The notes: generated by a model from the sequence alone, not told the origin. Positions 732 to 43,816 are shown, counted from the first letter of the whole stretch. The stretch: 63,917 nucleotides of DNA, filler included, from Collodictyon triciliatum (GCA_043381765.1; 18 parts of 18 records of this genome joined end to end with filler, not necessarily neighbours in it); one strand, 5' to 3'. A program made the numbers and translations.

Positions 732-3260
732 TCATAGTTGGGCGTTTTCAAATGGCTGCAACTTCATCAAATGAGAATAAGGGTCGCCCGTGCGCCTTCT
801 TTTCACTGTTGGCAAATATATACATATTAAATTATAATTTTTTTTTAGGGGTTAAGTAGAAGACTATACAGAAAATCCGACAGATAGGCGATTATACTTA
901 TACAAAAAATACAAAAATTAGACGTTCCCTTTCATTCAATCCAAGTAATAAAAAAAATTGTTTTTCTTTTAAAAAAAATTGTTTTTCTTTTAAAAAAAAT
1001 TGTTTTTCTTTTAAAAAAAATTATTCATAGCAAGTCTAGCACATCAATACGAATATATTTTTGAACTAAATAACCTAGTTCTGATTCTACAGTAGGTAGT
1101 TTCATCCAGTTGTGGGGGACATCCGTCCAACCAATCTCCCTAACTTCCAGTAATTCCGTGTTTCTGATTGCTTTTTCCATATTGCGATTAGGGAGAGAAT
1201 CAAAGCCTACGTTTTATATTCCCCCTTTTTAGAGATTGAAAAAGAAAAATAGAGATGAGAGAAAATGAGAAGTTGAGTGGAATGAAGATGATCGACAATA
1301 TATAATATACTAATCTGTGCAGAGACAGTTGGGTCACCAAAATATTCTTCCAGTTCCTTGTGGACTGCATATGTTGAGATAGAGTGAAGTAAATATTTTG
1401 CAAGTCTGTTATTGTGGATTCATGTTTATAAGCAGTGTAAATACTTCAGGAATGAGGGACATTTAATAGTAACGCACTCATTAAAGTAGGCTAAACAATA
1501 CAGTTTATTCACAAACATTTTATGAATTCGTTATTGACAGCCTCGTCAGATTTTAGAGGCAGTTTTGAATGCGACCTATCGGCAGACCCGGTAAACTCAA
1601 AGAGAAAACCAGATAAATGTGATTATTGGAATTTAAAAAAATGTATATATGATTTGATTCCCACGTTATTCACCTACCACTAGAGTTTTTCCTATGGATT
1701 TTGCACGTCTTCGGTTCAGTTGTTCTCGCGATTCTTCGTTTTGACACATGTATGCTAGAGATGGACTTAGCAAAGAGCTGTTAAAGGGTTTTGCGATGTT
1801 TGGGGATACTCCAGGAGATGGGTGTTGAGTTGGAAAAAGACTGACTGGAGCGAGTTTAGCTTTGTGAGGATTCTTGCTTGAGCCATTCAATGATGCAGAA
1901 GTCTACAATAAAGCAGACATTGGTTTTTTTAATTGATGCTATTGATATGATTGATCATTATTATCATCATCATTTTGTGTTAGTGATGAAATAATACAAT
2001 ATCAACGAATTCTATCAAGCCTTACAATAGGTAAATTTGACAAAGATGACTGAGATGAGTTCGGCATGGATGATTTAGCACTAAAATAGAGTTATCAATT
2101 TGTTTTAGCACCTCACCCGATGATCAACATGAAAATTGACCTTTAAATTATTCAGCCAACAACACGACAATCTAGCTCAAAATTGAAAGGAAGAATAAAA
2201 AAAACTATAACATTATTCAAAATGGGTCAGCAAGTATAGCCCGCAAGATGGCTGCAACCTCTACAAGAAGGGTATGTTCAAAATTTTTCAGACAATCAAA
2301 CAATCAAACAATCAAACAATCAAACAATCAAACAATCAAACAATCAAACAATCAAACAATCAAACAATCAAACAATCAAACAATCAAACAATCAAATCAA
2401 ACAATCAAATCAAAACAAATCAAAATAAAACAAATCAAAACAAAACAAAACAAATCAAAACAAATCAAATCAAAACAAATCAAAACAAATCAAATCAAAA
2501 CATATCAAAACAAATCAAATCAAAACAAAAAAGAAGTGATTAAGAATGAAAGAATCACTTTGAGTCGAATAAATGAAAAAAAAAAAAGGAGGAAAAGAAC
2601 GAGATCCTCAGATTTTAGACAAATAGTCCATGTTCTGAAACAAACACGAAAACTTACAACAGATCCACTTTACTTCCTGTGAATGTCCCATAGTTGGTAA
2701 CAGGAGGATCTGAGGGTATTGAAATAAAATCCAGCATATTGGACAGGCTAAAGGAGGTTTCTGATGGTTCGGAACGTAGCAACGCAGGAAGTTGAGGAAT
2801 ACTGGCAAGAAACTCTGCATTTTTCGTTTGCACTTCGTTGTTTATAATTTCCTCCAGTATGTCATTTTCTTCTGTGGTGAGAAGCCTTCCATTTACCTTC
2901 AACCCCATAAGCACGTTGCAGTTAAATTTACATCAATAGATCACAGAAACCGGCATCAGATAGAACAGGGAAAATTGATAGGAACATTCGTTTCATTTTC
3001 AGGCTAGTCTTGATTATGTGGATATTATTATTTTTTGCGATTATTAAGAGGGCTATACACTGGGAGTCCAGCTTAGCTGAATTGGTGTCAGAGTAGGTGA
3101 TGGACTTTGAATCCTTTGCTTTGAATTAGGTGTGTTGCTTCGAGAAACAAGGGGGCTTCCGCGCAAAGATGCAGAAGTGTCAATCCTTTCATCAATAAAC
3201 TTCCATCCAGCCGAAGACATATGATACTTTGATTTCATCGCAACACGTCCACCACCTAAT
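732..3260 (-). CDS. Hypothetical multi-exon protein (5' partial, boundaries approximate)
   Basis: Series of open, GC-enriched segments with GT/AG borders (e.g. MKSKYHMSSAGWKFIDE, LMGLKVNGRLLTTEENDIL, NTELLEVREIGWTDVPHNW, last exon VKRRRTGDPYSHLMKLQPFENAQL*). No family recognised. Confidence 0.45.
2178..2204 (+). repeat. Micro-element family A copy (CAAAATTGAAAGGAAGAATA + A-run)
   Basis: Matches copies at 17213, 19124, 21074 (rc) and 61767 (rc). No convincing flanking duplication here. Confidence 0.75.
2293..2528. repeat. (CAATCAAA)n microsatellite, degenerating to CAAAT/CAAAA units
   Basis: Read directly; it produces the spurious QSNNQTIK ORFs. Confidence 0.95.
2556..2587 (+). repeat. Micro-element family B copy (CACTTTGAGTCGAATAAATG + poly-A)
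   Basis: Diverged match to the consensus CACTTTGAATCGAATAAAGGGGAn. Confidence 0.6.
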
Positions 3261-3644: not shown

Positions 3645-3735
<91 letters not shown>

Positions 3736-4482
3736 CAAAAATGAGAGCATCGAGTGATTGAGTGGCGGTTGAATCTTAACCAAAAAAATTGCTAATCTTT
3801 CAGACAAACTTGGAGATGGAACGGGCACAAGCCTTCCAGCGCGAAAAGATGCAACAGCAAGTACATGCTCTATCCTCTATACACGCTATTTTGTTTATTT
3901 ATTGATTCATTCATTCATCGGTATAATATTTCTGGGGTAAATCAGAGGAAAAAAGATAGTGTAAGAGCCGCGGCAGAAGCTAGAGAAGCCTCAAAAGCCC
4001 GCAATCAACCAAAACCGTCCTCCGAAGGTAAGTGTCTCGTGCTTGTGGAGCCAAAGAAATCATGCCAATAATTATGAAGATGAGGACAATAAATCGAAAT
4101 TGTGGATATCATCAAACAATGCCATTGATTGCAAAGAAATAACGATTGAAGGCCATCGAAAAGCGATATTGAAAATGACATGCTGGTTGCAAACCGCCTT
4201 TCACAGCAGACAAGAAGCCCGCAGCTTTGGACGAGAGCAACATTGGGCACCAAATGATGCAGAGGATGGGCTGGAAGGAAGGAGACGGGCTCGGTGCAAA
4301 TAGCACGGGGATGGTGGAGGCCATTCGCGTAAAGTCACGCACTGGTCGGACAGGCCTGGGTATGGGTGTGGACGTGGAGACAGACCCCGGAGACTCGTAC
4401 CAGGTCATCACCCATTTATTTTTTCTTTTCTTTTTTTCTTTTTTTTCTTTTTTTTCTTTTTTTTCTTTTTTTTCTTTTTTTT

Positions 4483-4513
<31 letters not shown>

Positions 4514-4652
4514 CAATATAATGCTCATATCCACTTGTACTGAATCATTCACCCCAAAAAATTTTGATTTGATTTGTCTGTCTGCCTGTTCCGCCGTTGT
4601 CCAGGATGTTGCAAGGAAGAAGGCGAGAGCGCGTCTCCAAAATATGGACTGA
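3570..4652 (+). CDS. RBM5/RBM10-like splicing factor, C-terminal part (C2H2 zinc finger + G-patch), spliced
   Basis: Exons give LCRRKFKSMDQIEKHRDLSDLHK|TNLE (RBM5/10-type ZnF), the G-patch LDESNIGHQMMQRMGWKEGDGLG...RTGLG and the end DSYQ|DVARKKARARLQNMD*. GT-AG introns. Confidence 0.85.
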
Positions 4653-4678
4653 CCAATAATAAAAGGGAAAACTGACCA
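4648..4678 (+). mobile_element. Minimal family B-like insertion (ATAATAAAAGGGAAA) with 8-bp direct repeat ACTGACCA
   Basis: ACTGACCA at 4648-4655 and 4671-4678; the repeat includes the stop codon of the G-patch gene. Confidence 0.45.
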
Positions 4679-11693: not shown

Positions 11694-11741
11694 ACATCAT
11701 AGGTAATTATTTTTCCTTTATTCGATCCAAATGAACATCAT
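11694..11741 (-). mobile_element. Family B micro-insertion with ACATCAT direct repeats
   Basis: TTTTTCCTTTATTCGATCCAAA lies between ACATCAT at 11694-11700 and 11735-11741. Confidence 0.55.
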
Positions 11742-11849: not shown

Positions 11850-11895
11850 TTGAATGGGTGATATCATTTTTTCCCTTTATTTGAATGTATGATAT
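11850..11895 (-). mobile_element. Truncated family B micro-insertion with 15-bp imperfect direct repeats
   Basis: TTGAATGGGTGATAT / TTGAATGTATGATAT flank CATTTTTTCCCTTTAT. Confidence 0.55.
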
Positions 11896-12149
11896 AATAA
11901 TATAATTTTTAAATATGAACTATGAATCAGTAACCAAAAATATTTTTGAGTGCAATAACACGTTGAATGTGTCCAAGTTGAGTTATTTGATGTAAGTTTT
12001 TGGAGATAAAAGCTTAAATTGATGAAATTCCTTCTAAATGGGTGCACTTCATTGTGATACCTATCACACAAATCTATTTCCGAATGCCGTGACTTAAAAA
12101 TACTATTATGGAAACAGCAAACATCTTGTAATGGAAAAGCCTTGAGCTT

Positions 12150-14080: not shown

Positions 14081-15473
14081 NNNNNNNNNNNNNNNNNNNN
14101 NNNNNNNNNNNNNNNNNNNNNNNNTTAATTAATTAANNNNNNNNNNNNNNNNNNNNNNNNNNNNNNNNNNNNNNNNNNNNTTTTTCTTTTTTCTTTTTTC
14201 TTTTTTCTTTTTTCTTTTTTCTTTTTTCTTTTTTCTTTTTTCTTTTTTCTTCATTTTCATTTTCGTTTTCGTTTTCATTTTCATTTTCAAGAACGGTAGG
14301 CCATGGGGCAGCATAAAGAACCGCAGCGACGAGCGCCGCAAGACCGATCAGCCCGCCCTCTCCACGCGGCCGTGGCTGCCGACCGGTGCGAGAGACTCTC
14401 CTCGTTCTTGCTGTGCGTTGGACGCACGATCGCTTGGCCTTCGAGGCGCGGCCAAGAAACGGGCTTCGACGCCTTCGCGCTATTTTAGCAAACTCGGGTT
14501 CGAGTAATCTAGGTTTGCGTGGAACATTCCCTTATGAAGGTTGCCACCTGACCTGGGGTTAGTCGGCACTGCGTTTTTCCGTTTTGGTGAAGCATAATTG
14601 AATTCCGAAAGAAAATGTCCAATTCTGGATAAATCGAAAGCCTTCTCTTAATGTGGAAATCATTTACCTCGGTGCTAACTCTGACCTTCTCTGAACACAA
14701 TGGGCTCTGGCTGAATCCTAGGTAGAAACCCAATTAATGAAAATTAGATCGAAGGTTCTGTTTCGTGCCTGTGATTTCTGGGGATACTGGGTTTTATTGG
14801 CCGCTCGGGCGTTGTCTAAGTCCCCTCACACGCAAAGGTATTTATATGCAACGCTTAAATATGCATGTATTCGTATTAGCCATTTTATGCAGTAAATCAC
14901 GATTCAGACAACCTAAAATACCATATGTTTATTTTTTCCAGAAGTAGACTGCACATCCGTTGCAACCGGCAATATGGAATCTCCATTTTCAGGCTCTTCC
15001 GCCCTAGGCCCAAAGCGCCACAATAATAGCCAAAACGGGATTCTGTCAGGGCGGCGCGTGCTGTAACGTCCGCCGGCTCTGCTGTTCGGCCACGGACGCG
15101 TTGCCCGACGGCTGAACTTTGCGAAGAAAGCGCACCGCCAACGTCCTGCCTGCTGCGACCCCGATTACGTTCGATCGCTACCTTCGCCTTCTGATAACTT
15201 ACCTTTGTTCGCTGCCTTTCAATCAGCGCAAGACACACTCACACACACTCATTTCGAACTGGGGTCGCTGTGTCAGCGCCTTGCGCTATGTCTCCCCTCC
15301 ACAGTTAGTGTCGTTCCCGCAGTTTATAATGAATGTACTCCCATTCAATGGGGCCCAGCCAAAGTATTCTGACAGATGTTTTTCTCTCTCTCTCTCTCTC
15401 TCTCTCCCCCTCTCCCTCCCTCGTTCACTCTTTCCTTTTTCATGAAATGAAAAGAAATAGTCTGTTCTTATCT

Positions 15474-17018
15474 ATGGGCGGGATATGCTCTTCATCACAA
15501 GAGCCTCTCAAAGCCTCCGGGCTTGTGGTCGGCCAAGGCGACGAGGACAGCATCCATGTGCACCAATTTGACGCGGCATCAAAAATATTTGTGGACAACG
15601 CACCATGTCATATTCACTATGGCGAGTGCTTTGGAAGTCTAGGATATGCAGACCTATTCTTTGCGAAGATGGGCTCCGTCCCCGTCACAGTCTTCAAATT
15701 CAATGCAAAGGCTGTCATATGCTCCAGCTTTGAAGAGGCGATTCAGGATGTGAAGCTCTTAGCGTAATTATTATTATTTTTCCCCTTTATTCGATTAAAA
15801 GTAGCGTAATTATCATCTTAGCTTTCATAATTGTACGGATTACACCTTTGTCCGGTTCCTTAGTCGCTAAAAAATAATAATGAAAGAGTTCACTCTCACT
15901 TACAATTATATGATCAAAAGGAGGCAACCTGCTGATTATTTTTTTATTTTTATCTCTATGCACGGTCGCAGCGAGTTAGATCATCCCTCCATCACTCGTG
16001 TCATCGCCGCTCGGCTTGAAAATCCAGGCGCATGCTATGTTACCAAGCACTATCCAGTTGGCTCTTTGGATAGGATAGTTTATAATTCGAAAGTTAAAAT
16101 CCCCCCTAAGAGCAAGATTTCCATCATGCTCCAAATATCAGAGGGTATTCAATACCTGCACGGATACCAGCCAGAGATCATCCATAGGAACTTGAAACCG
16201 AGCTCCATATGGGTTTCATTTTGTTTTGTTTTTGTCTCTTACGATGTGATGTTAAAACACTTATTTTGGGGTTGGTCTGACCTCATTTAACAATGTTACA
16301 CTTTTGGATTCATATCTCCACTTTGTGGTATACTGTCGGGATGATGATAATTTCTTTTTTAGCATCGCATAACAATTCAACATTAATTTGACAAACATAT
16401 GGCCATGAAAATACATATATACGATTGCAGTCGCTTCGTATACCACCACTGAATCGCTTGACTAAGTCACTCATGAATATTTTACTTTCCAACTGACTTG
16501 TCTGCATATAACTCTTCTGCTCCCTTAGGTTGAATCCAAGTGGATTATTGGAGTTACAGACTTTGGGTTTGACAAAATCAGGGGAGAATTTAGAACACAA
16601 TCTGTTTGTTCAGAATCAAATGCATACAGAGACCCTCTAGTATTTAAAGGGGAGAAAGTATCAAAAGAGTCTGATATATACAGTTTTGGCATGCTCATGT
16701 GGGTGGCGTGGACAAGCAAGGTTCCCTTCGAAGGGTGCAACTCTATCAAGGTCAGGATTTATTTCTAAATCATGGGAGAATAATTTGTATGCTTCTCCAA
16801 CTTACTATGTCGATACACGGTCATCCAACAGAGAAAATTAATAGATTTTAAAAACAAACAAACAGGTTGGGCAAGATCTGATTAGAGGTGTGCGACCTGA
16901 TGTGCCTTCTGACTGCCCTGCTGGGTATGCCGAATTGATGACTAAATGCTGGGATGGAGAAAGGCACAAGCGACCCACTTTACAGGAAATCATAGAAACC
17001 CTCAAATCCATGTTGTAA
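15474..17018 (+). CDS. Tyrosine-kinase-like (TKL) pseudokinase, 4 exons, likely N-acylated
   Basis: MGGICSS start; LDHPSI, YLHGYQPEIIHRNLKPSSIW, DFG, SDIYSFGMLMW, RPDVPSDCP, CWDGERHKRPT. Has HRN instead of HRD. Confidence 0.85.
15760..15813 (-). mobile_element. Family B micro-insertion (30 bp) with perfect 12-bp TSD TAGCGTAATTAT
   Basis: Repeat at 15760-15771 and 15802-15813 flanks ...TTTCCCCTTTATTCGATTAAAAG; it duplicates the 5' splice site of kinase intron 1. Confidence 0.8.
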
Positions 17019-17030
17019 ACCATAACTAAC

Positions 17031-17091
17031 TCCAAAAGGTAGATTTTTTTCCCCTTTATTCGATTCAAGTGAAGGAAGGGTTTCCAAAAGG
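17031..17091 (-). mobile_element. Family B micro-insertion with TCCAAAAGG direct repeats
   Basis: TTTTTTTCCCCTTTATTCGATTCAAGTG lies between TCCAAAAGG at 17031-17039 and 17083-17091. Confidence 0.7.
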
Positions 17092-17212
17092 GGGATTTCT
17101 ACTGCATGAATAGCTCACGAATCTATATGACTATAGATTCAGCTTCAAAAAGAAAAGAAAACCGAAAGGAATAGCACATATAAAATTATGCACATGAAAT
17201 AAGAAAAAAAAT

Positions 17213-17246: not shown

Positions 17247-17552
17247 TAGCAGCAGTCTTCTTTATGTCTTCATTGACAAAATAGAATATATATAACTAGG
17301 TGTTAACGAAAAACTAAAAAGCTAAGAAACTAAAAACTAAAAACAAAGCAAGCGTAGAGAGATGTGGGAATGTGTCGTGGGGTATCTCCCACAACATATT
17401 CAACCCCTGCGACCCACGCAAGCAATTAATAAGTAAAACCACCCACCTGACCAACTCGTTATAACTGATATCTTTCCAGTGTCAGCTTCTCACAGTAACG
17501 TCTTCTCCTACTCGCCTTTTCTCTCCGCTACGCACCTATCTCGCCCATGGTA

Positions 17553-17594
17553 TAGCATAGCCTCGCTGCACTTTGAGTTGAATAAAGGGAAAAA
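17553..17594 (+). mobile_element. Long family B copy, possibly the 3' end of a longer element
   Basis: 37/42 identical to the reverse complement of the insert at 33727-33768; followed by an A-rich tail. Confidence 0.75.
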
Positions 17595-17723
17595 CAGAAA
17601 AACAAAAAAAAAACAAAAAAAACNNNNNNNNNNNNNNNNNNNNNNNNNNNNNNNNNNNNNNNNNNNNTTAATTAATTAANNNNNNNNNNNNNNNNNNNNN
17701 NNNNNNNNNNNNNNNNNNNNNNN

Positions 17724-18006: not shown

Positions 18007-20379
18007 TTAATCATTCGCCACATCTTGAATATGACTTACGGGGTCCGGTTCCTGCGGGTCATCACGGCCCTTTTGAGTTGTGAGATGTTTGGATTTCAGT
18101 ATGGGTCGGGCAGAAAGCATATCATTGAGTGATTTCTTCGACTTTGGCTAGACAGTCGCCCGCGATTCGTAAGAGTAAATAATATGAATAAGCGTAAATT
18201 ACATCGCACAATACCCTGTATATCCGTCCATCGTTACCGACTATTGACATCTGCTTAGAAAAAACTCCAGATTCCGAGGGTGACATAGGGGTGCTTAATA
18301 ATGATGAGAAACGAACAAAAAGTACAACACTGCAAAACAAATGACAGATAATTCAACATCGCATAAGACAGAGGAAATTATGAAGTTACTTCGAAGTATT
18401 TGTGATTATACCTTGGCAGAATTTCTTCTGAGCGGGCGGTAAATCCGTCTCTGGAGCCAGAGCCAGGAGCGAAGCGGTTGCATGTCAAACATCGATAGTG
18501 GACACGAGTAGCGACGGTCCCGTTTCCTTCCTCATAAAGGATAGTATGAAGCATTTCCTGTAAAACTTTAACAGATTCCTAGTATATTAATATACTTTGA
18601 GAATTCAGCAGCAATCAGAGAGGGCCTATATATCATGCATTTGTCATGAATTCACCAGTTTTTTTTGTAAAAGAAATGAGATTCACACAAAAAGGGGCTG
18701 TGATATTGGGCAAATAGCGGTAAGCACTTTTTCTGCTTTATCGTCTATTCTCTTGTGAATCTCGAGTAATTCAGCTTTCGAATCTCTTTGCTCTATCTCT
18801 TGAACGACCTAAATTTAATCCTTAGCGCCTAAACAAAACAAAACAAAAAGAAGGGAAAAGAAAGCGGGGAAAAAGGGGAAGAAAACAAGAATAGATAATT
18901 AGAATATATATAAAAAGTAACAGAAAAATGTACTTTTGTAAGGGCTTGTAGTTTGATATCAGATGCAAAGCTGCTTAGACTGGATGTTATTTTAGACATG
19001 TAATCCTACAATTGATTATTGTTTGTGGGTATGTAAGCGTATTCGTTTATATTTCAAGTACGGAGCCAGTAAAATAAAAACCTCTCCTCTTTGATAATAC
19101 AAAGTGAATAAAATTTCCATAATGCAAAATTGAAAGGAAGAATATAATAATAAAAATTAAATAATGCAAGTCTGGCAATCAATAGTCAATTATCAATTAC
19201 CCACCTTTTTTTTTTTTAAAAAAAAAATAATTCAAAATTGTCGGCAAATAGACTCCAAAGAAGTGGTGAGTTACCTGGGCTAATCTGAATCCATCCTTCA
19301 CGGTCTTTACCTCCACTTCTGCGGTAGCCAAACGAGAATCAATCTGCTTCACCATAACTGCTTCGGCTTTGTTTTCTTCCAGGGATGCTGATTTCTTTTT
19401 GTGGTCGTCTTCTAAAATTCTCACTACCCGACGCATTTCGTTTAAGTCTTCCTTCTCTGCCTTTCCAGATATTCTCGTTTCGATTGAACGTAGATCACTT
19501 GTATTTGCCTTGGATAGGAGCTCGTTAGATAGGTTTTCTACAAGCTTTTCATATCGCTCAATCCTGCGCAGTGAATTCTCTGTTATTTCAACGTTCTCTT
19601 TTCGGAGCTTGTCACGCATTTCTAGCTCTGAATATACTTTGGATATGTCAGCCTTTAAGCCAAGGTCTTTCTCCAGCTTAACAACACGTCCAGCCAACTG
19701 GCCGTCATGCAGCCAGTGTTGAGTTGTTTTCAGGTCATTCAGTTCAGAAAGCGCTTTGTTCGCTTTTGTCTCTGTATCGTCTGCCTTGTCGCTCACGATT
19801 CTCATTTGCACTTTCAATTCTCCGACCTCATGGTCTCGTGAATCGCGATTAGCACGAAAATGAATAAAATCATGCTCCACCCTGTCTAACCTGGCTCGGA
19901 TGATAGCCTCGTTCTTCTGGAATAACTCAAGCTGGTCGAAAATGCGCATTATTTCTTCGTCTTTGCGCCTGAGTAAGCGCTCCAGGTCTACTATTCGGGA
20001 TGAAAGCGCAGCATTTTTGGACTCCAGTTGCCCAATCATCTATAACGAAATCTCGTGTTTCAAAGAGAAAATGTAACAAAAACCATAATCATAATCATAA
20101 TCATAATCATAATAATAATCAGGAAAAATATAATAGGCCATATTATGAACCTTTAACTCGGAAGCATGACGCGAAAGTGTCTGTTCGTGGTTCTGAAGGA
20201 TGCAGGACAGCGCGTCCACCACCGAATCCAAGCATGTTACGTTGATGAGCTATTTCAGATAGCACATTCATAAAAAGAGATGAGATGTTGTTGATAATAT
20301 GACACTTGCGATCTGTCTATATTGGAACATGTATTTTGTTCATTTACAGTTAGGAATATTGAGCCAAGGTATCAAACAA

Positions 20380-21449: not shown

Positions 21450-23410
21450 ACCCACTTTGTCCATCATATGAGCAGCGTGAAGCGTTAGAAGGCGCGCTTG
21501 GTCGATCTCCATTCTGGACATGGCCACGTCGGCTTGAATAGTACCCTGGGCAGCAAGGAGTTTCCCAAATGTTTCTGATTTCATGAGGGTAATGATTACT
21601 TCAGTATGCCATCATATGAGGGTGAGCAGTTTGATTACCATTATCATCACATCATCAATCAGCTTAGCGATGTCATGAAGGAAAAGCAAGTAACATGATG
21701 GGTGGGACAGAATCAGATGGGATAAAAAATGCACTTCTCTCGGTGATTCGCTTGACCATCGTCTCCAAGGCGCGTTCTGCAAGCCCGATAAGACGCATAC
21801 AATGATGGATTCGGCCTGGCCCGAGGCGACCTGCATTTCGAGAGCATAATTGCAAAGGAGAATTGGTTATCTCTCAAATTGAAAATGGTCTGAAAAAAAA
21901 AAGAAGAGTTATCTACTAATCTCTGTCTGCCTTTCTTTCATCTTATCGTATATTATAGTAACCTTGGGCGATTTCAAACCCACGACCTTCGCCAAGGATC
22001 ATGTTTGAGAGGGGCACTCGAACATTCCTATGAGCCCGTCGAGACATTAGTAATGGTTCTATCATGTTGAAGCATAAGTAATTATAATCAGCGCTTCGTG
22101 ATTGTGCTACGTACACAAATTCCACTTCCATATGGCCGTGGGGAGCATCGTCATATCCAAAGACAGGCAATGGGCGAATCACACGCACGCCTAAAACAGC
22201 ATAGCGATGGGAAAAGAACAGCTTAAGAAATCAGCGAATGACAAGATATGTATCCAATATGAACTAGTGAGCGTGTGCAAATAAGTTTCTTTTTTTGTTC
22301 ACTGGTAATTCACCAGGAGCATCCATGGGGACAATAATCATTGACTGGCGCTGGTGTGTGGGGCCGTCCTCCGCTGTTTTTCCCATGAGGATGGCAACTT
22401 TGCAGTCTTTGCTTCCTAATTAGAAAGAGTTTACGAAAGGGCCAAAACAAGCAGAGCATCGTCCAAAGAAGAAAAACACCGTGTCCCATGTAAAGTAGAC
22501 AACACAATTATTGTCATAATGGTGAATTTGACGGAAAATAGAAAAGAAAAAAAGAAAAAGAAGAAGGAAAAGGAAAGGAAAAAAAGAAAAAAGAAAAAGA
22601 AAAGAAAAAAGAAAAGAAAAAAGAAAAGAAAAAGAAAAGAAAAAAGAAAAGAAAAAGAAAAGAAAAAAGAAANAGAAAAAAGAAAAGAAAAAAGAAAAGA
22701 AAAAAGAAAAGAAAAAAGAAAAGAAAAAAGAAAAGAAAAAAGAAAAGAAAAAAGAAAAGAAAAAAGAAAAGAAAAAAGAAAAGAAAAAAGAAAAGAAAAA
22801 AGAAAAGAAAAAAGAAAAGAAAAGAAAAAAGAAAAGAAAAAAGAAAAGAAAAGAAAAAAGAAAAGAAAAAAGAAAAGAAAAAAGAAAAGAAAAGAAAAAA
22901 GAAAAGAAAAGAAAAAGAAGAGACAATAGGCAAATGTTAAAAAAAAAACCAGCGCCAGAAGTCCACCATTTGCGCCCATTGATGACATATGCATCACCTT
23001 CCCGTTTGATTTCGCATGAGATGTTTGTAGCATCTGATTCGTTTTAATAATGATGAATATGTTATAATTTCACAAAATTTCATTCATGGTCGGGAATTTT
23101 TTCCCCTTTATTCGATTCAAAGTATATGGCCGGGAAAAATAATTCAATGTGGATTTCGTTTCTTTTTGGACATGATAAAAAACTCGTCAAATGACACAAA
23201 AAAAATATTTCACTCTATTAGCAAACTTAAAAAAATCTTATGAAGAGCAGATTAAAGAAAACCTGATGAAGCCACAGCTGGCTCGGTCATAGCGAAGCAA
23301 GAGCGAATTTTACCGTCCAGTAATGGTTTCAGCCACTTCTCCTGCTGCTCGGGACTGCCGTACTTTGAAAGGACTTCCATGTTTCCCGTGTCCGGAGCAC
23401 TGCAGTTGCC
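21450..23410 (-). CDS. Acyl-CoA dehydrogenase ACAD10/ACAD11 family, internal exons (partial)
   Basis: [11 protein letters not shown]...[30 protein letters not shown]...[68 protein letters not shown]. Confidence 0.93.
22540..22920. repeat. (GAAAA/GAAAAAA)n purine tract in an ACAD intron
   Basis: Read directly. Confidence 0.95.
23086..23136 (-). mobile_element. Family B micro-insertion with 11-bp TSD (1 mismatch)
   Basis: ATGGTCGGGAA / ATGGCCGGGAA flank TTTTTTCCCCTTTATTCGATTCAAAGTAT; inside an ACAD intron. Confidence 0.8.
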
Positions 23411-26271: not shown

Positions 26272-28730
26272 ATGCAAGCTCCCAAGCGACCGCTCGAGGA
26301 GGAAGGAGATGAAACCTTGGAGACGACCGGGCAGTATGTCCTCATTCCTTCAAACAACATACTTTTGGGGGAATCTGAGCGCCACCTGAATAAATCGAGG
26401 GAAGCGTATCCAACCCAAACTGTTCTCTCTCTATTTATTTTCCTGGAAGAATATAATCGCTCATTTTTTTTTTTTTAATGAATCGAATATAAAGGGGAAA
26501 AAAAACGCTCATCTCTATTTGAAACCTTGTGATTATAGGATTGTAGCACAAAGAGCCAAAAAGGCCACCCGAGCTATCCATGGCTTGCCAAATCCCCACC
26601 TCCAAAAACTGAGTGTCGATCACTTGTAAGGCACATTATATCCATTTATTAATTCATTCATTCATTAGTTCAATCACTCGTTCAAAGTGACGTTTCAAAA
26701 TTGAGTTGTTTTTTTTTCTTTTTCTTTACTTTACTTTATCGAGATATTTTTATATTTCGAGTAGCAATTTAACGCAAAATAGACATGGAAAATCCAAAAT
26801 TTTGTCGATAATTATCATGTATGTGAATAGATATCACTTGGGTTTGAAGTCTAGTATGGGATTTCCCTCGATGTTCGGTGATGTCCGGGTATATTCTGCA
26901 CTCCATAGAAACAAATACGGGATTCAAAAAAAAATCATGCAAATACTTAAGCAACACCCGCACATTGTGTCGTGAAATTCATCTTGTCCTCGTTATCATC
27001 TTAATTCAAAAAATGTCCTCTTGAGTACCTACATCAATCGCTATCTATATGTATATTCACTAACTCTTTCCAAAAAAGTACGTTTTGATTGGTGGAAGTG
27101 CATCAAGAATCCGAAAAGTTGCCAAACAAACCTTAAAAGCCCTAGAGGTGAAGTTGCCTTTGGGAGCAGATCTTGTTCCTATCGGAAAATCAGATAGGTA
27201 AGCATAACAGTGTCAACAATAAATGATCTTTTGAGAAAAAAAGACAGAAAACAGAAAAAAAAAGAAGGCAAGTCTGCACTTTGAACATCATGTATACACA
27301 TTTTTTTATATTTGTGGCAAATTTCATTATAGGTATGAGATGTACAAAGTTGGTCCTGTAATCTGCGTGAATGTAATACGAATACCCTCAATATATATTT
27401 TTGATGATGCTCAGCAATAGTGGCGAATGGGTTCAATAATGACATCTTCTACACGAAATATACTTACCTAGAGTTTTATTCTTATGATAAGCATGGAATG
27501 GGGAAACCGTCCTTGAGCATTCTCCTTCATGAATTAGTGAAACTTCTGTACTACTCAGAGGTTTACAAGCCTTTTTAAGATACTGATAGAATCTTTTTTT
27601 GTTCATTTGCTTTTATAGAATATTAAAATGTAAGCTACTCAATTAAAGGTTGAAAATGCCATGATTATTCGCCTTGGAACTTGTGGAGGATTGGGGGTCA
27701 TCCCTGGCACGGTTATCCTGACGACTGAGGCCGTAGACGGAACTTTCCGATCAGTTCATCGCGGTGAATATAATTTTTCTTTATATCATTCTTGATTAAG
27801 TTTCCCAATTATCTTTCTTTCGTTTCATCTTTCTGTTTTCTACCATTTTTCATCTGCCTATTATATATGTTAATTGCGAAAGCATTTTCAAAATGATGTT
27901 GATTAAAAGGTCGATATGTAGCTATTTTCAATTCGACAGCGGAGTTAGCCTAAAACCTAAATCACCTAGTTTGCGAGCTAGGAAAAGTCAACGAATATCC
28001 ATCTGCTTATAATGAAAAAGTAGTTGATGATGTATATGAGTACATCCAGAACCACCATTTTGATGAACTAATTCATCAGTTCCCTGTTGTGAAGGGAAAG
28101 ACCATATGTGCTGATGATTATTACACTGGTAGGAACTTTATTTTTTCTCAATCAAAACAACATATATAGCACAGATTACACACCAACCAAACAGCCATAC
28201 AAAAAAAAAAAAGCAGAATAAAAAGCGTAGCGCATCTGTGGGAAGACATCCAATGTTCTGTTTATTCATATTAAACATATTAAAATGTTGTAAAGGACAA
28301 GCGCGCCTAGACGGCGCTATTTGTGGTTATACTGAGGAGGAGAAAATGGACTACCTCACCAACGCCTATGAAGCCGGAGTTCGTAATTTTGAGATGGAAT
28401 CAATGGTGTTGGCATCATTCACGAAACAAGTTGGGATTCCATCCGCGTGCATGTGTGTGGCGTTCTTAAATCGCCTTGAAGGAGACCAGGTATATATACG
28501 TTTGAGCATCACCCAACAGAAGAAAAGATTCATAACAAATCTGTTGTTCGTGTGAGTTTTTTTTATCCGAGAAAGAGCTTTATATTACATTTGTTGCATC
28601 AATTAACTCCCTCGACCTTTTCATGGCTATCTAGGTTCTTGGGTCTGCCGAGGAATTGGCGGAGTTTGATGAGCGCCCATCATCACTTGCTATCGGTTAC
28701 GTTCGTCACAAGCTTTTGAACAAGGATTAA
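26272..28730 (+). CDS. UPP1: Uridine phosphorylase (UPP1/UPP2-type), multi-exon
   Basis: NPHL...DHL|YHLGL, MFGDVR, GGSASR, KSDR|YEMYKVGP, HGMGKPSLSILLHEL, IRLGTCGGLG, GQARLDGA, GVRNFEMES, LNRLEGDQ. Confidence 0.92.
26458..26512 (+). mobile_element. Family B micro-insertion with CGCTCAT direct repeats
   Basis: TGAATCGAATATAAAGGGG(A)8 lies between CGCTCAT at 26458-26464 and 26506-26512; intronic. Confidence 0.65.
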
Positions 28731-33594: not shown

Positions 33595-35921
33595 TTATGA
33601 AGTAGTATATCCTGCCGCATTGTCGGATGGTTTTGATTCATCTGGCCAAGGCGATCCTTTTGCAAGAACCTGTGACGAAACAAAAAAAAATTCATAGGAT
33701 GTTTATATATGAATATTAATAACTTTTTTTTTCCTTTATTCGATTCAAAGTGCAGCGAGGTTATGCCAATGAATATCAATAACTTTACAATGGTATTGAC
33801 ATTCTTGTGTAAATACCCTTGTTTACTTTTTTAAAAAAGAAAAAGAAAAAGAGAGAGAGGCGCTAGAGTGTTAGAAATAAACTGCAAATGTTACCTGTCT
33901 CGCATTGATATTAATTCGATTATTCTTTATGTATGTATGACAAGTATCCCAACTTGGGGTATCCGATTCTAAAAGAAAGAAACAAACATGAGTATATGTC
34001 AAAATCAAACCGCGACTGAGTTCGGTTTATTGCGTGATTTACTTCATTTACTTATTTTTATTTGTTACCGGGTTACGCTGTTTAAAATCAATAAATACAA
34101 GTAGAGAGAAACAATTTAAAATAATGTAAATCACCTGTAATTATGGAATCAGAGTATAATGTTTTACGAAAGAGTGTATATCTACAAAGGGGTATAAGAA
34201 AGTGTTGCATTACCCTCTTCATAATGAGATGGACAAGAATCAGATATTATCCGTGGTACTCCTGTAAGAACAAAAAAAAAAATGATGCAAGTAATAAAGA
34301 GACCATTTTAATTCAATTAAATGTAACCTCATCAAAACGCCAATATATTACCAAATTACATGATTCATTCAAAGGCCAGCAGCCATTAGGACGGAAAATA
34401 ACATGATAATGGAGAAAACGCGAAAGAATGCATATGCAAGAAATAAATAAAGAATAAACCATGATAACAAAGCCGAAACTTCCCAGACATGACTACAACA
34501 TCTCCATCATACACAAAAAGAGGTATTGGCTCTATGTCCTTCGTTTCTCCTCCCAACAAGAAAACTGCACTATTTCCTAAACTGTGATAAGTTGGATGCA
34601 TTAATTCCACATATCATTTCATGTGTGTATGTCCCGCATCATGCACATCATATCTTCAATTTTGGAATACGATATGTGGTGGATGTGGTAAATATATAAC
34701 CTTATGGATACAATGGGGAATTGAAAGTCAAACTCTGAATCGTCTAAATGACCTCCTAGAGTAGAACCTGGTAACCAAGGTATCAACATTTTTTTCCTTT
34801 ATTCAAACCAAGGTATCATCATAATTCAAAAGATTATTCCGTAGCTATGTTAATTTGAATCACTTATCGTTTAAAAAGAACAAGACGCAAAAATCGATAA
34901 AGAAAGAAACATGCGTGTACCACGTGATGCACATAAACAAGAATATAGTATAAATAAATTTAAAAAAATAAAAGGAACAGGATAGAATGTGAGTTTCCAG
35001 AGAATCAAGGGAGTATACCTTTTGGGTAGTAATTAACTATGGTTGCCTGAGGAATAAAGTCTAGGTCTATCAATCGCGCGATTGAAGAGCAAATGGTGGA
35101 AAGGTCATCAGGGTATGAATGGTCCTTTTGTGGCGGGTAGAGTCGTTTTGTCCAGTCATAGTGATAGCCGAGTGTAATCCACCGCAACTTAGGGGGGATG
35201 GTGGCTGCAGACTGTGGCGGCACGATTCCGATATTGCTCGGGTTTCCAGTAGGGTAGTCTAAAAGACATCTCTTCACAAGGTGTCTTTTGACCTGGTTTG
35301 TTAATGCATTGGGGATGACAAAAAGCCCTTTCGACCCACCGCAGTCGCGAAGCCAAAGTTTATGAATAAAAAGGGTAAAGTGAAAAGGGGAATCACACGA
35401 GAGGATACTTTAGAAAGAAATACTCAGCGATGCATACATTATTATAACCTAACCACGCATATACTAATATATATGAAAGGAGAAATATGCACAGGAAATA
35501 GATGAAATATTTATGAACTTGAGTATCTAATTGTTTACTAAAACAAGATATGGAATAGAGTTACAGATATCTGCATACCTGGGTGTTGTGGAAACCAAAC
35601 AACAGGGGCACTTTCCAAATGCTTATTCCAACCCAAGCCCCATGAATATCTCTCTTCGGGGAATTCAATCGTCTGTTTGACTGCCTGTAATTCGAGCTGC
35701 GTCCGCCTCAGACGCTCGTTGCAAAGGCAAAATGGACGCCCAGCAACGAAGGCCCGAACATCCACAACATCACTAAAGTCTGTCGCCTTTTGCGCATATT
35801 CCTTATACCGCTTCTCTGCTTGTCGAAAGGCACTTGCTTTTGCTGTGGTTGATGTTTGAGGCGCTGCCATTTCTGCCCCATCCTCATTTTCAACCTTGCG
35901 TTTCCCACTACTTTCTGCCAT
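33595..35921 (-). CDS. ALKBH1: AlkB homolog 1 Fe(II)/2-oxoglutarate dioxygenase, spliced
   Basis: KLRWITLGYHYDW, IVNYYP, TLGGHLDDSE (HxD), SLGNSAVFLLGG, GDVVVMSGKFRLCYH|GVPRI, RININARQ|V. Confidence 0.93.
33709..33786 (-). mobile_element. 42-bp family B insertion with 18-bp TSD (1 mismatch)
   Basis: ATGAATATTAATAACTTT / ATGAATATCAATAACTTT flank TTTTTTCCTTTATTCGATTCAAAGTGCAGCGAGGTTATGCCA; in the last ALKBH1 intron. Confidence 0.85.
34773..34818 (-). mobile_element. 20-bp truncated family B insertion with perfect 13-bp TSD AACCAAGGTATCA
   Basis: Repeat at 34773-34785 and 34806-34818 flanks ACATTTTTTTCCTTTATTCA. Confidence 0.75.
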
Positions 35922-40377: not shown

Positions 40378-43300
40378 GATTCCTTCTTTTTGGTAGAATC
40401 CTGATAAACATAGGCTGCATGATGCGCTTCTTTCTGAGCTGTAGCTTCCGTTTGGACATTCAATACATGAATCACCAAATGAACCCGTTTTATTGTTGAA
40501 TGTACCAGCTGGGCATGTTGTGCATTCATCTTTGTACTTACTCCCAAAAGTCCCTTGTGGACATTCAATACATGATACGTTGCTTGTTGAACCAAATCTT
40601 GGATTGTAAGTTCCATCGATACATTCTATACATGTCTTTTGGCCAGATATTATATTGTAAGAACCAGGTTGGCAAAGTTCACATGTGGATTCTCCTGAAT
40701 TTGAAGAAAATTTCCCTTGAGGACACAATTGGCAATTGCTAACATCTGTTGATGCGACATTTGGATTAAAAGTCCCGGCTGGGCATTTTTCGCAGTTAGT
40801 TGATTTTGTTTTATTTGAATAAGTACCAGTGGAACATGGATTACAAAACTGCTTTCCTTTCTCACTCATGAAAAACCCAGTAGGACAGTCAAAACAACTC
40901 GACTTTCCATCAACACTATTGTATGTTCCTGGCTCACATAGGATACAGGATGAGTTTCCAGCACCTCGAATATTTGGATTGAATGTTCCTGCTGGACACG
41001 AAGTACAAGACCTATCGCCCTCATTACTGTAAAAACCAGTAGTGCAATTATTACATGAAATTTGACCTTTAATATTATTAAATGTTCCAGCCTCGCATTT
41101 TTTGCAAATTGATTGTCCCACAAGATTATTGTACGTTCCTTCTCCACATGGAAGACAATCTTTAATGCTTGTTGAACCATTAGATGGGTTGTAAGTTCCA
41201 GTCGGACACAATGGACAAAAAGTGAGCTCATTTCCGTTATTATAAGAACCGGATGGACATCTTTCACATGAATTTGATAGTTGATTGAAAAAGTATCCTC
41301 CTTGACAAGGACTCCAGACTTTGATGAAATTGTCTGTGCTTGCTGAAATAATTTTCGAATCCGGAGTGGCAAAAACACAATTTACCGAATTTGTGTGACT
41401 TACAAGCGTTCGAATTTCTCTTCCATCTGATATTGTCCATATTTTGACTGATTTATCACTGCTTCCAGAATGCAATTTCGTTCCGTCAGGTGATATCGAA
41501 ATGCTATTTACTGAACTTTTGTGTCCAATAATGGTCCTTATTAACACGCCATCCAAAATCTTCCAAATTTTGATTGTGTTATCGCTGCTTCCAGAGATGA
41601 TTCTTGTCCCATCTGGAGATGTAATGACACACCTGACAGCATTTCCGTGGCCGGTTATGGTTCTTATTAATGCTCCATCTGACAAATTCCAAACTATTAT
41701 GGAAAAATCAGCACTGCCTGATATAATTTTGGTATTATCAGGCGTAATAAAAACAGAATTCACTTCTTTTGTATGCCCAGATAAGGTGCGAATCAAAATT
41801 CCATCTGAAGCTCTCCAAATATTTATAGTCATGTCATCACTTCCTGATACAATCATAGAACTATCTGGCAACATTGCAACGCTTCGAACAGCAGCAGTAT
41901 GTCCGATAAGTGTTTTCAATGGAGTGCCATTCGAAAAATTCCACATTATTACGGTGTTATCACTGCTTCCTGACACAACTTTGGTTCCATCAGCTGAAAC
42001 AACAATACTATTGACAGAATTTTTATGGGCATTTATCGAAAGCGATAGAGAACCGTCAGCAAAATTCCAAATTTTAATTGTGTTGTCGCTACCTCCTGAT
42101 ACAATTTTCGTTTTATCTGTGCTTAAAGAGACACTATTGACTGAGCTGCTGTGGCCTGAAACCGTCAAAGTCAAGCTGAAATCAGGAAAGTTCCACATTT
42201 TTATTGTCGTATCATCACTTCCAGACAAAATTTTTGAGCCATCTGAGAGAACTGATATTCCCGTGATTGGAGCTCTATGTTCATTCATGATATTTATTGT
42301 TATCCCACTTGATTGAATCCAAATTCTAATGGTTTTGTCACTGCTTCCAGAAATAATCTTGGAACCATCCGGAGAAATCGAAATAGTTTTGATTATTCCT
42401 GTGTGTCCATTGAGAGTGTGAATTAAACTTCCATCCAAAATGCTGGTCACTTTTATTGTTTTATCGCTGCTTCCAGAAACAATTTTCGTTCCATCTGGCG
42501 CTATAGCAACAGAGTTTACTGCATCAGTATGAAAATTTATATTTTGTACCAATGTTCCGTCATTAAAATTCCAGACTTTGACGGTTTTGTCGGAACTTCC
42601 AGAAACAATTTTTGAGCCATCAGGAGTTAAAGCTACACTTGTGATTATTTCAGTGTGTCCATTTAATATGCGAATGATATTTCCGTCAGATATTCTTGTA
42701 ATTTTGATGGTTTTATCACTGCTACCAGAAATAATTATGTTTCCATCATTTTTAATGGCGACGCAGTTCACTGAATCTATATGGACTTGAATTGATTGAA
42801 TAAAAGAACCATCATCGACATTCCATAACTTGATTGTTTTATCTGAACTTCCAGATATGACTTTAGAGTTATCAGCAATGAGTATCAATGTATTTACAAT
42901 ATCAGAATGAGCATCCATCGAACTAATGAAATTTCCATTTGATAGATTCCAAACTCTGATGATATTGTCTGAATGCCCTGTAATAAATACCGACTTAGAA
43001 GAGGATGTCACGATGGAAGTAACTCTCGAGCCTTTCGAGTATATTGGGCTTCCATCAGGCAAACTCCATAGCCTCATCGAAAAATCATCACCTCCAGAGA
43101 CAATTTTTGAGCTATCAAAAGTAACAGCGATTCCTATAACTCCTGAATAATGACCTATTATTGAACGAACCAACTGCCCATCAGAAAGATTCCATATTCT
43201 TATGGTGTTATCCCAACTCCCAGAAACAATTTTTGAGCTATCTGGAGTAATTGCTACACTTATCACTCCGCTGTGAATAGTCAAAGTCCGAATCAAACTT

Positions 43301-43816
43301 CCATCAGATAGATTCCAAATTTTGATTGTATTATCAGAACCCCCTGATACGATTTTTGAATTATCCGAAGTGACGGCAATACATCGAACAAAGTTTGTAT
43401 GGCTAGTCAACGTGCGAATCAAAGCTCCATCAGAAAGATTCCAAATTTTTATCGTGTAATCTCTACTTCCAGAAACAATTTTAGAGCCATCAGTAGTGAA
43501 AGAAATGGCGTAAATCCAATCTGAATGACCAACTAAGGAATTAATGAAAGTTCCATCAGAAAGATTCCAAATTTTTATGGTTTTACTAAAACCACCAGAT
43601 GCTATCTTTCTACCATCAGGGCTAACTGATATAGAGATTACACCACTAACATATGCAAAGAATGTGCGAATTAAAGCTCCATCAGAAAGATTCCAGATTT
43701 TGATTGTATCATCACCACTTCCGGATATAATTTTCGAACCATCTGGGGTAATTGCAACACAATAAACAGAGCTTCCATGACCACTTAAGGTTCGAATCAA
43801 AGTTCCATCTTGAAGA
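40378..43816 (-). CDS. Intronless WD40-repeat (~20 repeats) + cysteine-rich CPxGTY-repeat fusion, open at both contig ends
   Basis: GH...VxSVAITPDGSKIVSGSxDxTIKIWN repeats at ~41315-43816, then CxxCPxG(T/S)(Y/F)N...CxxC repeats (GCC2/GCC3 / ephrin-receptor-like) at ~40378-41312. Confidence 0.93.

Follow-up and report, generated by a model that had tools for sequence, protein, structure and literature searches.

Very short A-tailed insertions in the Collodictyon triciliatum genome as probable 5'-truncated copies of an L1-like LINE

The closest described systems to the insertions considered here are the L1-type LINEs, for which it is established that insertion involves a nick in the target and priming on the poly(A) tail of the element's RNA, and whose copies average hundreds of nucleotides in length. 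SINEs that carry LINE-derived tails are also relevant, as these would share the LINE 3' end, the A-tail, and the target-site duplications (TSDs). In a sample of the Collodictyon triciliatum genome, a short A-tailed sequence recurs at many unrelated sites, cut off at varying 5' positions. We put at roughly 90% the probability that these inserts derive from a single polyadenylated L1-like non-LTR retrotransposon (LINE), being 5'-truncated copies of it that most likely arrived through target-primed reverse transcription (TPRT).

The whole stretch of DNA that was analysed, referred to as the window, is 63,917 bases long and consists of 18 contigs, most of ~3.44 kb with one of 4.8 kb and one of 2.3 kb, separated by spacers of the form N44-TTAATTAATTAA-N44. 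The overall G+C content of ~36% is that of an AT-rich eukaryote, and Pfam recognises eukaryotic genes, including an ORF (1146 aa) with WD40 and Ephrin_rec_like domains, a TALE homeobox gene, a protein-kinase exon, G-patch and 2OG-Fe(II) oxygenase genes, and an exon of ketopantoate hydroxymethyltransferase. The 1146-aa frame, at 40378-43815 (-), fills contig 12 without interruption and is incomplete at either end; its 19 WD40 repeats come before the Ephrin_rec_like repeats, an unusual domain combination. A Pfam scan of 71 window ORFs found no reverse transcriptase of any kind and no endonuclease, while scans of the whole window found no Rfam family, no hammerhead, and no tRNA. Homopolymers and purine- or pyrimidine-rich microsatellites are extremely dense (TRF lists 65 rows, and A-runs reach 83-96 nt; examples lie at 3646-3741, 22534-22916, 56372-56828, and 58588-58670), and a simple repeat is found at the start or end of nearly every contig. 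Assembly of the window seems to have been limited by simple repeats rather than by transposons.

The family is recognised by the motif AATAAAGG(G/A)(G/A) followed by an A-run, present in 10-11 copies on 7 contigs and on both strands, consistent with the initial annotation, which had counted about 11 occurrences on at least 7 contigs in both orientations. Nine matches to the regular expression ATAAAG{2,5}A{4,} are found in the window, all nine in family context, as compared to the 0.52 expected from third-order Markov simulation (maximum of 4, with 0 of 300 simulations reaching 9), and the 19-nt core has 6 matches at 3 or fewer mismatches versus 0.07 expected from shuffles. The ATAAAG{2,5} core is directly followed by 5-9 A's in all nine regex copies, most of which read AATAAA. 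BLAST with the element's 3'UTR adds a tenth copy at 2556-2587, and the site at 4648-4678, with one extra A in the motif, is a plausible eleventh; it was missed by the regular expression, was read directly, and is the weakest member of the family. All copies stop at a common 3' position, and their 5' ends vary to leave LINE-derived lengths of 8, 10, ~12, 20, 20, 20, 21-23, ~21 (+T12), 32, 36, and ~240 nt. The copies are as follows:

Copy 1, 33709..33786, minus strand: LINE-derived 36 nt (33733-33768) and A9 tail (33724-33732); TSD 33709-33726 and 33769-33786, 18 bp with 1 mismatch.
Copy 2, 34773..34822, minus strand: LINE-derived 10 nt (34796-34805) and A7 tail; TSD 34773-34789 and 34806-34822, 17 bp with 1 mismatch.
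Copy 3, 15760..15816, minus strand: LINE-derived 20 nt (15782-15801) and short, impure A-tail; TSD 15760-15774 and 15802-15816, 15 bp with 1 mismatch.
Copy 4, 17031..17098, minus strand: diverged LINE-derived 32 nt (17051-17082) and A7 tail; TSD 17031-17046 and 17083-17098, 16 bp with 2 mismatches.
Copy 5, 11850..11898, minus strand: LINE-derived 8 nt only (11873-11880) and A6 tail; TSD 11850-11867 and 11881-11898, 18 bp with 3 mismatches.
Copy 6, 23086..23136, minus strand: LINE-derived 21-23 nt (23103-23125) and A6 tail; TSD 23086-23096 and 23126-23136, 11 bp with 1 mismatch.
Copy 7, 26458..26512, plus strand: T12 (26465-26476), then ~21 nt of LINE tail (to 26497) and A8 tail; repeats 26458-26464 and 26506-26512, 7 bp.
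Copy 8, 11694..11741, minus strand: LINE-derived 20 nt (11715-11734) and A5 tail, then 9 further nt; repeats 11694-11700 and 11735-11741, 7 bp, a weak TSD.
Copy 9 (probable), 4648..4678, plus strand: ~12 nt resembling the LINE end, with an extra A and a short A-run (4656-4670); repeats 4648-4655 and 4671-4678, 8 bp.
Copy 10, 2556..2587, plus strand: LINE-derived 20 nt (2556-2575) and A12 tail; no recognisable TSD, and none given for it in the initial annotation.
Copy 11 (long), 17348..17623, plus strand: ~240 nt of LINE (17348-17589), comprising the end of an ORF2-like coding region and the whole 3'UTR.

The impure A-rich tail of copy 11 runs into the end of its contig, so that the two sides of a TSD are not both available. 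Copy 3 lies antisense between two protein-kinase ORFs on the plus strand (15333-15764 and 15871-16287), and is probably inside an intron of the kinase gene, just past a GTAAT-type donor that falls within the TSD. The T12 of copy 7, immediately after the left repeat, may reflect a 5' inversion, a template switch onto poly(A), or a pre-existing T-run.

Direct repeats flanking the copies were scored as the best ungapped match (+1/-1.5), with the right member placed -3 to +12 nt from the end of the tail and the left member upstream of the motif, and were compared with those at 414 other A-run anchors and 1500 random anchors, tandem-repeat contexts being excluded. Six of the eight testable regex copies score at least 8.5, with repeats of 11-18 bp (anchors 33724, 18 bp with 1 mismatch; 34789, 17 with 1; 15777, 15 with 1; 17044, 16 with 2; 11867, 18 with 3; and 23097, 11 with 1), a score reached by 30 of the 414 A-run anchors (7.3%) and 74 of the 1500 random anchors (4.9%). 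In all six strong cases the start of the right TSD copy falls within -3 to +2 nt of the A-run's end, and thus what look like additional nucleotides behind the tail are mostly slightly diverged TSD. Together, the six carry 9 mismatches in 95 bp, which suggests that the insertions are old. Comparison with random flanks, a check that the initial annotation had put forward, therefore upholds six of the duplications it listed, several of them longer than listed once 1-3 mismatches are admitted, whereas the 7-8 bp repeats of the copies at 11694, 26458, and 4648, taken one by one, do not exceed chance, since 7 bp is attained by 17-20% of controls. Microhomology at the 5' junction amounts to 0-2 nt, as judged by eye at 8 sites only, too few to inform.

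When 625 A-runs were scanned for strong TSDs, with a filter that also lost several known family members, those passing outside tandem repeats were 2 family members and 2 weaker others. This hints that the retro-insertion signal in the window comes mostly from the tail of this one LINE. A 94-nt insert at 19134-19227, within 19120-19241 (+), ends in T12A10 and lies between direct repeats of 14 bp (19120-19133 and 19228-19241) that differ at 1 position; it is possibly a retro-insertion from a different template.

The source of the inserts was sought in metagenomes, where pieces of contig 10, the contig that carries copies 1 and 2, turn up in small shares in freshwater, lake, and subsurface runs. 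Metagenome contigs from four runs, belonging to four studies, were aligned to contig 10. Run X1 has the locus with both insertions filled, in contigs spanning 33674-33825 (a lake metagenome) and 34606-34937 (without a gap). The initial annotation had proposed a search for empty-site alleles, and none emerged: no joint or deletion is seen at either contig-10 insertion in the parts covered, X1 being the only run to span both. In runs X2, X4, and X5, many contigs match 33724-33768 only; their flanks differ, their depth reaches 90, and they are other copies of a high-copy repeat. Their loose ends past 33768 agree across the three runs, which means that longer copies exist, and the window copy at 17582 has the same extension on its upstream side.

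A scan of metagenomes with the 19-mer yielded 12 loci, of which one, L003, is a true family member; the other 11 are chance matches within unrelated, mostly coding sequence. Two matches in a genome-contig scan are likewise chance, being bacterial records with neither family context nor TSD, and there were 0 matches in a viral-contig scan and 0 in a metagenome scan with a two-part pattern taken from the longer 3'UTR. In L003, a JGI metagenome contig, AATAAAGG followed by A10 closes a 93-nt 3'UTR, and immediately upstream is an ORF with a zf-RVT domain (PF13966, 32.4 bits against a cut-off of 27.5). It is the only contig outside the window that physically joins the motif to an ORF. Copy 1 is 97.6% identical to the L003 3'UTR over 42 nt, and window positions 17348-17618 align by blastn with the L003 UTR and the end of its ORF at 80% over 275 nt. 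Because this alignment continues into the end of the ORF, the copy at 17582 is a 5'-truncated copy of ~240 nt rather than a 45-nt unit; of the earlier description of truncated inserts of 15-45 bp, the variable 5' ends stand and the upper length does not. L003 is frameshifted relative to P0015, a 359-aa fragment of the same cluster (L003 549-1157 and 205-606, -), and is thus itself a dead copy.

Since the longest copies, when extended 5' as the initial annotation had proposed, run into a LINE 3'UTR and a zf-RVT C-terminus, the RNA that served as template is the 3' end of a LINE transcript. The initial annotation had entertained an undescribed retro-insertion or RNA-templated break-repair system, a suggestion that this result does not support. 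It had also named beforehand what would follow if the motif proved to be the tail of a LINE or SINE, namely that novelty would drop and the mechanism would stand, and this is what happened. Given an ordinary LINE 3'UTR as source, the inserts should no longer be counted as evidence of a novel insertion mechanism. The LINE family is new, of a known type, and unusual only in the shortness of most of its copies.

A HMMER search of 1.84 billion representatives with the L003 ORF as query matched 14 proteins. The close matches come from ENA, JGI, Logan, and NCBI and are fragments, 72-253 aa in length; several of them have zf-RVT, a domain that scores 32-36 bits in P0002, P0015, and P0018 and is thus a feature of the family ORF. 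The distant matches P0009-P0012 are proteins of 1226-1275 aa, with Exo_endo_phos and RVT_1 in 4 of 4 and zf-RVT in 3 of 4. The family fragments P0017 and P0018 are collinear with residues 772-1201 of P0009 (E values of 6e-23 and 8e-24), the region directly behind its reverse transcriptase domain (RVT_1, E value of 2e-36), such that the family fragments match the last 430 residues of ~1230-aa proteins with an endonuclease, a reverse transcriptase, and a zf-RVT domain. In the Atlas, P0018 sits among eukaryotic zf-RVT-type clusters. Searches for longer family members, or for members bearing a reverse transcriptase or endonuclease, returned none, and near-length matches were C-terminal fragments only. 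Exo_endo_phos was observed only in the distant full-length relatives P0009-P0012 and in none of the recovered family pieces; the reverse transcriptase and endonuclease of this LINE are accordingly putative, predicted from relatives that share 26-30% identity. A C-terminal fragment, decayed and belonging to a different though related LINE, lies at 55035-55313 (-), with 46% identity to P0018 over 83 aa (tblastn, E value of 1e-16); the family tail is absent downstream of it, and an A/T-rich stretch follows at ~54925-54950.

The unvarying 3' end, which bears AATAAA and an A-tail, the graded 5' ends, the TSDs of variable length that set in with an A at the tail boundary, and the continuity with a LINE 3'UTR and ORF fit TPRT by a poly(A)-dependent LINE of the APE type, and the signature of TPRT that the initial annotation had seen in the variable TSDs, the A-tail, and the 5' truncation holds. 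By this mechanism, a LINE-encoded endonuclease would nick the target at an A/T-rich site, releasing a T-rich 3' end that would anneal to the LINE RNA at its poly(A) tail; reverse transcriptase would then copy the RNA starting at its 3' end. In most events, synthesis or use of the template would stop after ~8-36 nt of the 93-nt 3'UTR, and the short cDNA would be joined to the far side of the staggered break, creating the 11-18 bp TSDs. Candidate reasons for the early stop are low processivity of the reverse transcriptase, fragmentation of the template RNA, or rapid resolution of the intermediate by the host.

One question regarding the short copies is whether they come from the LINE itself or from a distinct short retroposon, non-autonomous and either SINE-like or derived from an abundant small RNA, that shares the last ~45 nt of the LINE and is mobilised in trans. 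A preferred 5' end could be hinted at by the longest short copy, 33733-33768, as several metagenome matches end at 33763-33768, within 5 nt of its 5' end. However, it is the window copy itself that cuts off the matches ending at 33768, beyond which their loose ends carry on into LINE 3'UTR, and the 5' ends in the window are spread from 8 to ~240 nt; moreover, neither a tRNA gene nor an Rfam family is present in the window as a possible source of a pol III head. We consider a separate retroposon very unlikely. It is also conceivable that fragments of LINE RNA or cDNA were captured independently of the endonuclease and used to patch pre-existing double-strand breaks, a form of RNA-templated break repair with which the extreme shortness of the inserts would agree, as would the weak or missing TSDs or extra nucleotides at 2556, 11694, and 26458. 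Endonuclease-independent L1 insertions, however, are said to be typically without TSDs and often without a tail, and the 11-18 bp TSDs that start at the A-tail in six copies point instead to a staggered cut primed on poly(A), which makes the patching of breaks highly improbable.

The fragmentary nature of the assembly and its wealth of simple repeats raise the further concern that the motif is an adapter, a primer, an assembly chimera, or a fortuitous A-rich sequence. Against this, the copies vary in length and sequence and lie within contigs, the regex count is ~17 times the Markov expectation, and the motif adjoins protein fragments from ENA, JGI, Logan, NCBI, and EukProt. Copies also occur in contigs from 4 metagenome runs, those of 4 separate studies, as well as in the JGI metagenome contig, so that the match to a library adapter or primer, or absence from independent libraries, that the initial annotation had named as grounds for doubt is refuted by diverged, variably truncated copies in independent metagenomes. 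The chance that the family is an artefact is next to negligible.

What sets the LINE family apart is the length of its copies. Ten of the 11 window copies keep only ~8-36 nt of the LINE, wholly within the 93-nt 3'UTR, and the short copies occur at ~1 per 6 kb, with those of 36 nt or less outnumbering longer ones by ~10:1 in a 62-kb sample of ~3.4-kb contigs. Short-read assemblies break at long insertions that are present in many copies, which biases the interiors of such contigs toward short copies. This LINE occupies just 1 of the 36 contig ends (the right end of contig 5), and a protein-level search of the window found just one other LINE fragment, that at 55035-55313; the excess of tiny copies is therefore not obviously an artefact of assembly. 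It could be that the usual outcome of LINE integration in this genome is a "micro-scar" of ~8-36 nt of 3'UTR and a short A-tail, as opposed to a kilobase-scale dead copy, a proposal that, on a sample of 62 kb, we regard as rather unlikely.

Were this the case, micro-scars at ~1 per 6 kb would mean tens of thousands genome-wide, and would imply either a very poorly processive reverse transcriptase or a host pathway that aborts TPRT within tens of nucleotides yet seals the site cleanly with a TSD. Each micro-scar would also plant an AATAAA and an A-run, a possible source of new polyadenylation sites. A skew of this kind, if genome-wide, would make this organism a natural setting in which to study what brings target-primed reverse transcription to an end. 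Inserts of 8-36 nt are below usual detection limits, and standard repeat annotation would miss almost all of the copies, such that LINE activity in the genome of Collodictyon triciliatum, and perhaps of other protists, may be badly underestimated. The titles and abstract openings returned by a literature search held no account of this LINE family, or of LINE families dominated by copies of <40 nt.

Placed beside known systems, the family is like the L1-type (APE, poly(A)) LINEs of mammals and plants in its 3' end with AATAAA and an A-tail, in TSDs of variable length (7-18 bp in this family) beginning where the sequence is A-rich, in variable 5' truncation with a constant 3' end, in a C-terminal Cys/His zf-RVT domain behind the reverse transcriptase region, and in its nearest full-length relatives, which combine Exo_endo_phos, RVT_1, and zf-RVT in ~1230 aa. 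This likeness is one of shared features rather than of placement in a clade (L1 as opposed to Tx1-like and others), the family ORF being only 26-30% identical to those relatives. A Penelope-like or TERT-like origin, for which the initial annotation had proposed a search, finds no counterpart in the window, where none of the 71 ORFs encodes a reverse transcriptase and there is no hammerhead, and the linked ORF and its relatives have the zf-RVT, APE, and RVT_1 layout. Unlike SINEs, the copies have neither a common 5' head nor a match to a pol III-type RNA gene, and their graded 5' ends merge into the LINE ORF; membership among SINEs fails for want of a discrete tRNA, 7SL, or 5S head, of any tRNA or Rfam match in the window, and of a common 5' end. 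Unlike L1, whose length distribution is far less skewed to tiny copies, 10 of the 11 copies in the window consist of only ~8-36 nt of the element.
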